NCBI RefSeq assembly: GCF_051903065.1
Contig: NZ_CP178438.1
Strand: one strand, 5' to 3'
DNA from: Escherichia coli
GTDB lineage: Bacteria > Pseudomonadota > Gammaproteobacteria > Enterobacterales > Enterobacteriaceae
Length of the DNA stretch: 64,000 nt
How positions within the stretch are numbered: the first letter of the stretch is position 1; each line of letters starts with the position of its first letter. This document shows, piece by piece, positions 63,604-64,000 of this stretch. Under the pieces are notes generated by a model. That model worked only from the letters and a program-made list of their open reading frames with translations, was not told the DNA's origin and did no database searches. Made by a program: the position numbers and the translations under genes.

Positions 63604-64000
63604 AAGTTATATCCTGATAATTAAAACCGCTATATATTTACATATATATCGAAAAAAATCATGTTTGATGTCAAAATTTGTCTAAAGAGACAGAATGATT
63701 TGCTTGTTGTTTAAATAACACTTTGTTCCACAAGAAAATTGTCAGGGAGAATGGCGGAGTGGCGAAAAATATAAATAGAGGTGTACTGATTAACAAATTG
63801 ATAAAATAAAATTAAAATCTTCTCTGATATAAGAAAATAAAGGCATAGACCGTAGAATGGGGGGCATTTCGTGGCGAAAAAAGAGCAATGCCAATTTTAT
63901 GCACATAATGGCATTGCTCGATATACAGCAAAGTTAAGGCGTAGGTTCCGCCTCTTTTTGTTTTACCGGCTGTGTTGTTGATTCACTGAGTGGACGCGTC

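Follow-up and report, generated by a model that had tools for sequence, protein, structure and literature searches.

A candidate ModE operator in the leader of an accessory "iron-uptake" operon of Escherichia coli and its predicted molybdenum control

The stretch of DNA analysed here (the window, 64,000 nt of the Escherichia coli contig NZ_CP178438.1) ends in the treA–ymgE locus, and several E. coli chromosomes match its last 600 bases at 100% identity. One of these, the annotated record CP048605, carries a gene cluster between ymgE and treA, and the RefSeq annotation of this record was carried over to the window (window coordinate = L001 coordinate + 54399). All genes of interest lie on the minus strand. 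The 3' end of treA, the gene for periplasmic trehalase, occupies 63934-64000, with a reading frame that ends in ...EAEPTP and the stop codon TAA at 63936-63934, and the gene runs past the window edge. Between treA and the cluster lies a spacer of 330 nt, AT-rich as the earlier note on this DNA had described it (31.5% G+C over 63604-63933). The cluster itself is a six-gene operon (57177-63603, minus strand), assigned from annotation and domain matches. From first to last gene, all on the minus strand, it encodes a substrate-binding protein (Peripla_BP_2; 62581-63603), a FecCD/BtuC-type permease (61601-62581), an ATPase (60846-61604), a class I SAM methyltransferase (60024-60836), ModD (59173-60027; TIGR01334, E = 4e-152) and a TonB-dependent receptor (57177-59147). 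The ribosome-binding site AGGA (63615-63612) and the ATG (63603-63601) of the binding-protein gene together span 63601-63615 on the minus strand, and neither TCAGGA nor ATG varies across a seven-taxon alignment. The N-terminus of the binding protein (63574-63603, minus strand) reads MSLTRRRFTQILAS..., a signal of the twin-arginine (Tat) type, with a TRRxF motif that is kept in an alignment of 20 sequences.

The operon is an accessory element of the species, as 2149 of 5426 complete E. coli genomes (about 40%) match the last 600 bases of the window. K-12 lacks it, carries ycgY at that place and has a different treA 3' end followed by a different terminator. The last ~60 nt of treA plus the terminator (63934-64000) differ from the K-12 counterpart (L002 5680-5746), and since the difference includes the 3' end of treA, the variable segment has its boundary within treA coding sequence and not in intergenic DNA. 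Eight matches to the leader are plasmid-borne and some genomes hold two copies, so the cluster appears to be occasionally mobile or duplicated. One copy in CFT073 reportedly lies on a pathogenicity island. UTI89 and strains of O157:H7 and O145 carry the cluster as well. In the literature it is named prrA-modD-yc73-fepC and corresponds to S-loop#83 or OI#55 of O157:H7 (Z1961-Z1966 / ECs1693-ECs1699), "proposed to be involved in iron uptake" (PMC1890555), while in the avian pathogenic strain BEN2908 it is listed as GR9, "possibly mediating iron uptake" (PMC12928451). As for the O157:H7 Z1966/Z1967 region (window 62581-63603), PGAP makes no gene call there and the spacer is without conservation; the older annotations in question look like legacy errors.

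The treA-proximal part of the spacer carries an inverted repeat that the earlier note had placed within 2 nt of its actual position, 63883-63919. Its two arms, GAGCAATGCCA (63883-63893) and TGGCATTGCTC (63909-63919), are 11 nt each, 100% complementary and 15 nt apart; perfect arms of 11 nt or more, with a loop of 3-20 nt, arose in 4 of 1000 dinucleotide shuffles. On the minus strand, the sequence beyond the treA stop codon runs TAA-ctttgctgtatatc-GAGCAATGCCA-(15 nt)-TGGCATTGCTC-TTTTTT-CGCCAC. The hairpin begins 14 nt past the stop, has a minimum free energy of -20.1 kcal/mol (z = -2.8) and is followed by a T-run on the treA strand only. Because of this position and of the U6 on the treA strand, the inverted repeat is the intrinsic terminator of treA (63877-63919, minus strand), with the stem GAGCAAUGCCA / UGGCAUUGCUC (63919-63909 and 63893-63883), a 15-nt loop and UUUUUU at 63882-63877, and would be expected to act as such. 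A stable stem-loop, a U-run directly behind it and a same-strand stop codon just upstream are all present, the one unusual trait being the long loop of 15 nt. K-12 and Citrobacter have hairpins of unrelated sequence at the same place, which means that the structure is kept and the sequence is not, and the stem is undamaged in the UTI89 allele. The promoter/terminator scan, with its loop limit of 8 nt, missed this hairpin; a weak plus-strand hairpin inside treA that it did call was disregarded.

The direct repeat seen earlier near 63757 and 63871 is likewise real, with GTGGCGAAAAA at 63759-63769 and again at 63871-63881. Taken by itself the 11-mer is marginal, since 39 of 1000 shuffles contain an exact direct repeat of that length or longer. 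In-register extension by AGAATGGCGG (63748) and AGAATGGGGG (63854) turns it into an imperfect duplication of 22/28 nt with a 6-nt indel. On the minus strand copy A (63854-63881) reads TTTTTCGCCAC-GAAATG-CCCCCCATTCT, where the T-run is the U-tract of the terminator, and copy B (63748-63769) reads TTTTTCGCCAC-TCCGCCATTCT. Citrobacter carries ATATTTTTCGCCAT directly after its own treA terminator, to which copy B is similar, and copy B is also found in Escherichia sp. L008. Judging from these similarities, the ancestral sequence behind the terminator was probably that of copy B. The two copies have diverged independently in the UTI89 allele, to CTTCATCAC and TTCCCCCAC, and no counterpart of the repeat was found in E. 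albertii, Citrobacter or Yokenella, although the operon and the operator described below are kept there. In view of its decay in UTI89 and its absence from other genera, we read the direct repeat as the scar of a rearrangement that rebuilt the Escherichia treA 3' end and terminator, and not as an operator. Between its two copies, within an AT-rich segment specific to Escherichia, lies a sigma-70-like sequence, TTGTTA-17-TATATT (9/12; 63768-63796, minus strand), two such matches being found against 1.4 expected. It could be an additional upstream promoter or merely AT-rich noise.

The main regulatory element of the leader is a candidate ModE operator (Mo-box) close to the start of the operon, at 63626-63653, with the sequence ACCGCTATATA-TTTACA-TATATATCGAA. 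PMC545781 gives the ModE consensus of E. coli as ATCGNTATATA-N6-TATATANCGAT, against which the site scores 18/20. None of 500 shuffles reached this value (shuffle mean 12.8), and the second-best match within the 64-kb window scores 14. The same scan of a 32-kb control segment of K-12 (790-822 kb) returned two sites only, those of modA and moaA at 16/20 each, with all others at 13 or below, and the dmsA site scores 17/20. The candidate lies closer to consensus than these three validated sites, and it stands at the promoter of a molybdenum-related unit, the operon encoding ModD.

Conservation was followed in a sample of 80 loci with relatives of the binding protein, one genome per species, together with contigs of Citrobacter and Shewanella. 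A box scoring 15-20/20 lies directly upstream of the binding-protein gene in 36 of the 39 gammaproteobacterial loci, in most of them 17-32 nt from the start codon. It is present in E. albertii, eight Citrobacter, Yokenella, Enterobacter, Klebsiella, Raoultella and Symbiopectobacterium as well as in Pantoea, Erwinia, Serratia and five Shewanella. Among 33 distinct sites the positions C3, T6, T8, T10, A19, T20, A23, C25 and G26 are invariant, and the intergenic DNA around the box cannot be aligned between genera, so that a close match to consensus is here combined with conservation amid diverging DNA. Apart from second boxes before the gene of the TonB-dependent receptor, the box is the sole match of at least 15 in each locus of about 19 kb. 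Across the 1.39 Mb of loci, essentially every match of at least 16 precedes the binding-protein operon, the receptor gene or mod genes, and several alphaproteobacterial loci with a homologue of the binding protein have Mo-boxes as well.

The second box upstream of the receptor gene is a perfect 20/20 match in three Shewanella and scores 16/20 in Serratia sp. H1w (L006 11757-11784; L035 12738; L041 12677; L033 9059); in E. coli no ModE box was found before the receptor gene. No good box was found in C. braakii (L025) or Lonepinella (L042). In C. braakii ATCC 51113 (L025, ~8890-9001) the best box reaches 12/20 and the binding-protein match begins only at residue 37, which suggests that the 5' end and promoter are disrupted in this strain. 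A small palindrome of the form CCCTTAnGGGGTA (L004 7880-7900 and equivalent positions) precedes the ModE box by some 50 nt in several genera other than Escherichia (Citrobacter, Enterobacter, Klebsiella and Raoultella) and is not found in E. coli.

Only one other block of the leader is conserved. The sequence TTGACATCAAACAT (63661-63674, minus strand) follows the pattern TTGAy-N6-CA(A/T) and could be a -35 element or a site of the FNR-family type. In 15 diverged Enterobacterales promoters this pattern starts exactly 21 nt upstream of the ModE box, with TTGA and CA invariant while all neighbouring columns vary. TTGACATCAAACAT includes a perfect -35 hexamer, TTGACA, and a plain hexamer of this kind accounts for part of the TTGA/CA conservation. 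With 7/10, the E. coli element is a weaker match to the FNR consensus TTGAT-N4-ATCAA than those of Yokenella, Enterobacter and Raoultella (8-9/10). Purely as a hypothesis, a class II FNR site centred at -41.5 would put the transcription start near 63626 and the -10 element within the ModE box. The best TATA-like hexamers lie 18-20 nt from TTGACA, the alternatives being TTGACA-N18-GATATA, TTGACA-N20-TATATA and an extended -10, TGTAAATAT; a single assignment of -10 and +1 was dropped, as all of these are possible, and the start is predicted to fall at about 63626-63645. Enterobacteriaceae also keep TGTAAA, the spacer of the box, a hint that promoter function overlaps it, and the 5' UTR of the operon is likely only about 25 nt long.

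Based on this arrangement, the leader is best explained, with a probability of roughly 80%, as a terminator, a rearrangement scar and a ModE-operated promoter, the operon being repressed when molybdenum is sufficient. On the minus strand, the first ~60 nt of the spacer would form the end of the treA unit, with its hairpin and U6 terminator. The following ~220 nt, AT-rich, specific to Escherichia and bracketed by the direct repeat, would represent the scar and carry no conserved function. The last ~75 nt before the ATG would then be the promoter-operator, made up of the TTGAy-N6-CAw element and the near-consensus ModE box. By analogy with modABC, a molybdate-loaded ModE dimer is expected to bind the dyad at 63626-63653, occlude the core promoter and thereby repress rather than activate the operon under sufficient molybdenum, so that molybdenum starvation and not iron starvation would switch it on, possibly with an added anaerobic (FNR) input. 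With no more than 22 nt between the box and the ATG, ribosome-binding site included, activation from this position is unlikely. The ModE box downstream of P1 at dmsA acts positively, which means that the position of a box alone is no proof of repression. In addition, H-NS or another protein might also bind a box that is so rich in AT. A literature search located no binding or expression data for the operon promoter; its sequence indicates that the operon probably responds to molybdenum and not to iron.

One competing reading takes the operon for a classical iron or siderophore uptake system under Fur repression, with a degenerate Fur box hidden in the AT-rich leader. Both papers cited above term the cluster a putative iron-uptake system, and its components are of the FecBCD, FepC and TonB-receptor type. 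The best match to the Fur consensus GATAATGATAATCATTATC lies at 63616 and, with 13/19, is level with the genuine fepA-fes region, although by the same crude measure the K-12 control regions fepD-entS and fepB-entC reach 16 and 15, and a control in which fepA-fes itself only attains 13/19 is a weak one. Yet 13/19 is chance level, being reached by 23% of shuffles, and the match shares bases with the ribosome-binding site and with one half of the ModE box. The orthologous leaders mostly score 10-12/19 and keep no Fur-like block in position, while the blocks that are conserved, TTGAy...CAw and the ModE box, belong to the promoter-operator described above. A Fur box, taken as a good consensus match (or at least three NATWAT hexamers) that overlaps the promoter and is kept in orthologues, was not found here. 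A strong Fur box is excluded, a weak Fur site less firmly so. The earlier note, which had found no convincing Fur box by eye and had questioned classical iron/Fur regulation, was right on the first count, and on the second classical Fur control is unlikely in the absence of a credible box; as an account of this leader it seems highly improbable. Among the regulators that the note had named, scans run as consensus counts singled out ModE (18/20), and Fur, Zur, PhoP and Fnr, like Crp, ArcA, PhoB, OmpR, NikR and IscR, gave no score in the leader above those of shuffles. A marginal MntR-like match (14/20) proved to be the terminator palindrome.

Alternatively, the TATATA-rich palindrome could be a chance or structural feature of an AT-rich promoter, such as a -10 element or a nucleation site for H-NS, to which no ModE binds. 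TATA repeats are common in AT-rich promoters, and the conserved TGTAAA spacer with its suggested overlapping promoter function fits such an origin. However, the flanking CG...CG and the exact 6-nt spacing are invariant over all 33 distinct sites, including those of loci with 55-62% G+C. The score was not reached by shuffling, the same pattern yields only validated ModE sites in the K-12 control regions, and other taxa have boxes before the receptor gene and before mod genes, too. This explanation is about as hard to credit as hidden Fur control.

Least credible is that the repeats, which to the earlier note looked like operator sites or a small structured element, serve as operators of some other regulator, for example in a DNA loop between sites 112 bp apart, or form a structured 5' leader RNA: both exceed chance to the degree given above and 112 bp is near a whole number of helical turns, but the inverted repeat has the position and U-tract of a treA terminator, both copies of the direct repeat have mutated independently in UTI89, neither repeat is found in E. 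albertii, Citrobacter or Yokenella, all of which have the operon and the ModE box, and the conserved promoter lies downstream of both, so the main transcript would not contain them. An Rfam scan of 63300-64000 (E <= 10) gave chance matches only, none with E < 0.8 and none near a gathering score, so that no covariance model identifies a riboswitch or other RNA family here. What the note described is better divided between a terminator and a decayed duplication, and the inverted repeat in fact belongs to treA, a gene that leaves the window, an outcome which the note itself had named as refuting its reading.

The reading as a ModE-operated promoter gains weight from gene neighbourhoods outside the enteric bacteria. 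In alphaproteobacteria and in a Lysobacteraceae MAG, homologues of the binding protein with 36-44% identity adjoin modA or modABC (L045, L048, L060, L068, L075) or modE (L047, L063). This adjacency is an independent genomic linkage to molybdate transport. Going further, the OI#55 cluster may be a ModE-repressed, possibly FNR-activated system for TonB-dependent uptake of molybdenum or tungsten, in which a metallophore- or organic-ligand-bound substrate passes through a type II importer and is processed by ModD and the methyltransferase, a tentative proposal that we would place somewhat below even odds. If it were true, enterobacteria would have a second molybdenum route, one that needs energy at the outer membrane, and ModD would gain a physiological context. 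More broadly, a TonB-dependent receptor, a BtuCD-type importer and the enigmatic ModD would be tied to molybdenum homeostasis in many Proteobacteria.

The candidate operator is, by its sequence, a standard ModE site and not a new mechanism, and neither the treA terminator nor the duplication is out of the ordinary. The interest of the leader lies rather in placing under predicted molybdenum control a marker that is common in pathogenic E. coli and goes by the label "iron-uptake". For 25 years UPEC, APEC and EHEC have been scored for the cluster as a marker of iron uptake or virulence, and a ModE operator would change how an operon carried by O157:H7, UTI89 and ST131-like strains is read. It predicts induction by molybdenum starvation or by a modE mutation, not by iron chelation. 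Molybdoenzymes power anaerobic respiration in the inflamed gut and in the urinary tract, and dedicated scavenging of molybdenum would therefore bear on pathogen fitness. A full-text literature search returned no link between the cluster and molybdenum or ModE; Studholme and Pau, who in 2003 reportedly scanned genomes for ModE sites, may already list this one.

Among known systems, modABC offers the closest parallel. Its operator shares the dyad CGnTATAT-N-TAYATAnCG with the site described here, and in both cases an uptake ABC transporter is under a control that would follow the same logic of induction by molybdenum starvation, here by analogy. The modABC box spans the -10/+1 region. It ends 17 nt before the modA ATG compared with 22 nt in the present operon, its left half-site doubles as a TATA-like -10, and at 16/20 it is further from consensus than the 18/20 found here. 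While modABC encodes a type I transporter, the present operon combines a type II (BtuCD/FecCDE-like) transporter with a TonB-dependent receptor, ModD and a methyltransferase, and unlike modABC it is accessory (~40% of E. coli).

The dmsABC promoter resembles the present one in pairing an element of the form TTGAT-N4-AACAA, TTGATACCGAACAA, with a ModE box, TTCGATGTATA-CAAGCC-TATATAGCGAA. The right half of TTGATACCGAACAA, which we take to be the dmsA FNR site, is of the same kind as the right half of TTGACATCAAACAT. Such a pairing of an FNR-type element with a ModE box fits anaerobic molybdoenzyme physiology. The geometry differs, as the dmsA elements are about 70 nt apart, whereas here 7 nt separate the 14-nt element from a box that abuts the ribosome-binding site, and unlike in dmsABC a role of FNR is a hypothesis drawn from the 7/10 match.

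With regard to transport, the operon resembles MolBC-A of H. influenzae (HI1470/71 and MolA, HI_1472), a type II importer with a molybdate/tungstate-binding protein, in that both have a class III binding protein of the BtuF/FhuD fold and a BtuCD-like permease and ATPase. MolA is the closest characterised solved relative of the binding protein (profile E = 1e-13, above binders of Fe, Ni and B12), a remote similarity that lies chiefly in the C-terminal half; the uncharacterised structures 4pag and 4ovk are nearer. The description of MolA as a molybdate-binding protein is given here from a title cited in PMC11734730. The Pasteurellaceae homologue L042 was considered as a MolA orthologue, which would have linked the family to a proven molybdate binder, and set aside, its E-value to HI_1472 being only 8e-10. 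The TonB receptor suggests that the substrate is larger or scarcer than free molybdate, in contrast to MolBC-A.

A further parallel is MorABC of Rhodobacter capsulatus, a second ABC transporter that is repressed by molybdate through the ModE-type regulators MopA and MopB acting on Mo-boxes (PMC6925177). Both are extra ABC transporters under molybdenum repression, predicted in the present case, with an unproven substrate. MorABC is ModABC-like (type I) and comes without a receptor, ModD or methyltransferase, while the operon described here is of the FecB/BtuC type, and MorABC was ruled out as a homologous molybdenum-regulated transporter on the ground of this ModABC likeness. Under ModE, a Shewanella regulon paper lists modE and modABC alone. 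The prrA-modD-yc73-fepC cluster of ExPEC and EHEC, finally, has the same genes at the same ymgE-treA locus as the operon analysed here. The papers located on this cluster present it as an iron system and do not mention its regulation, whereas the candidate ModE operator in its leader argues for control by molybdenum.
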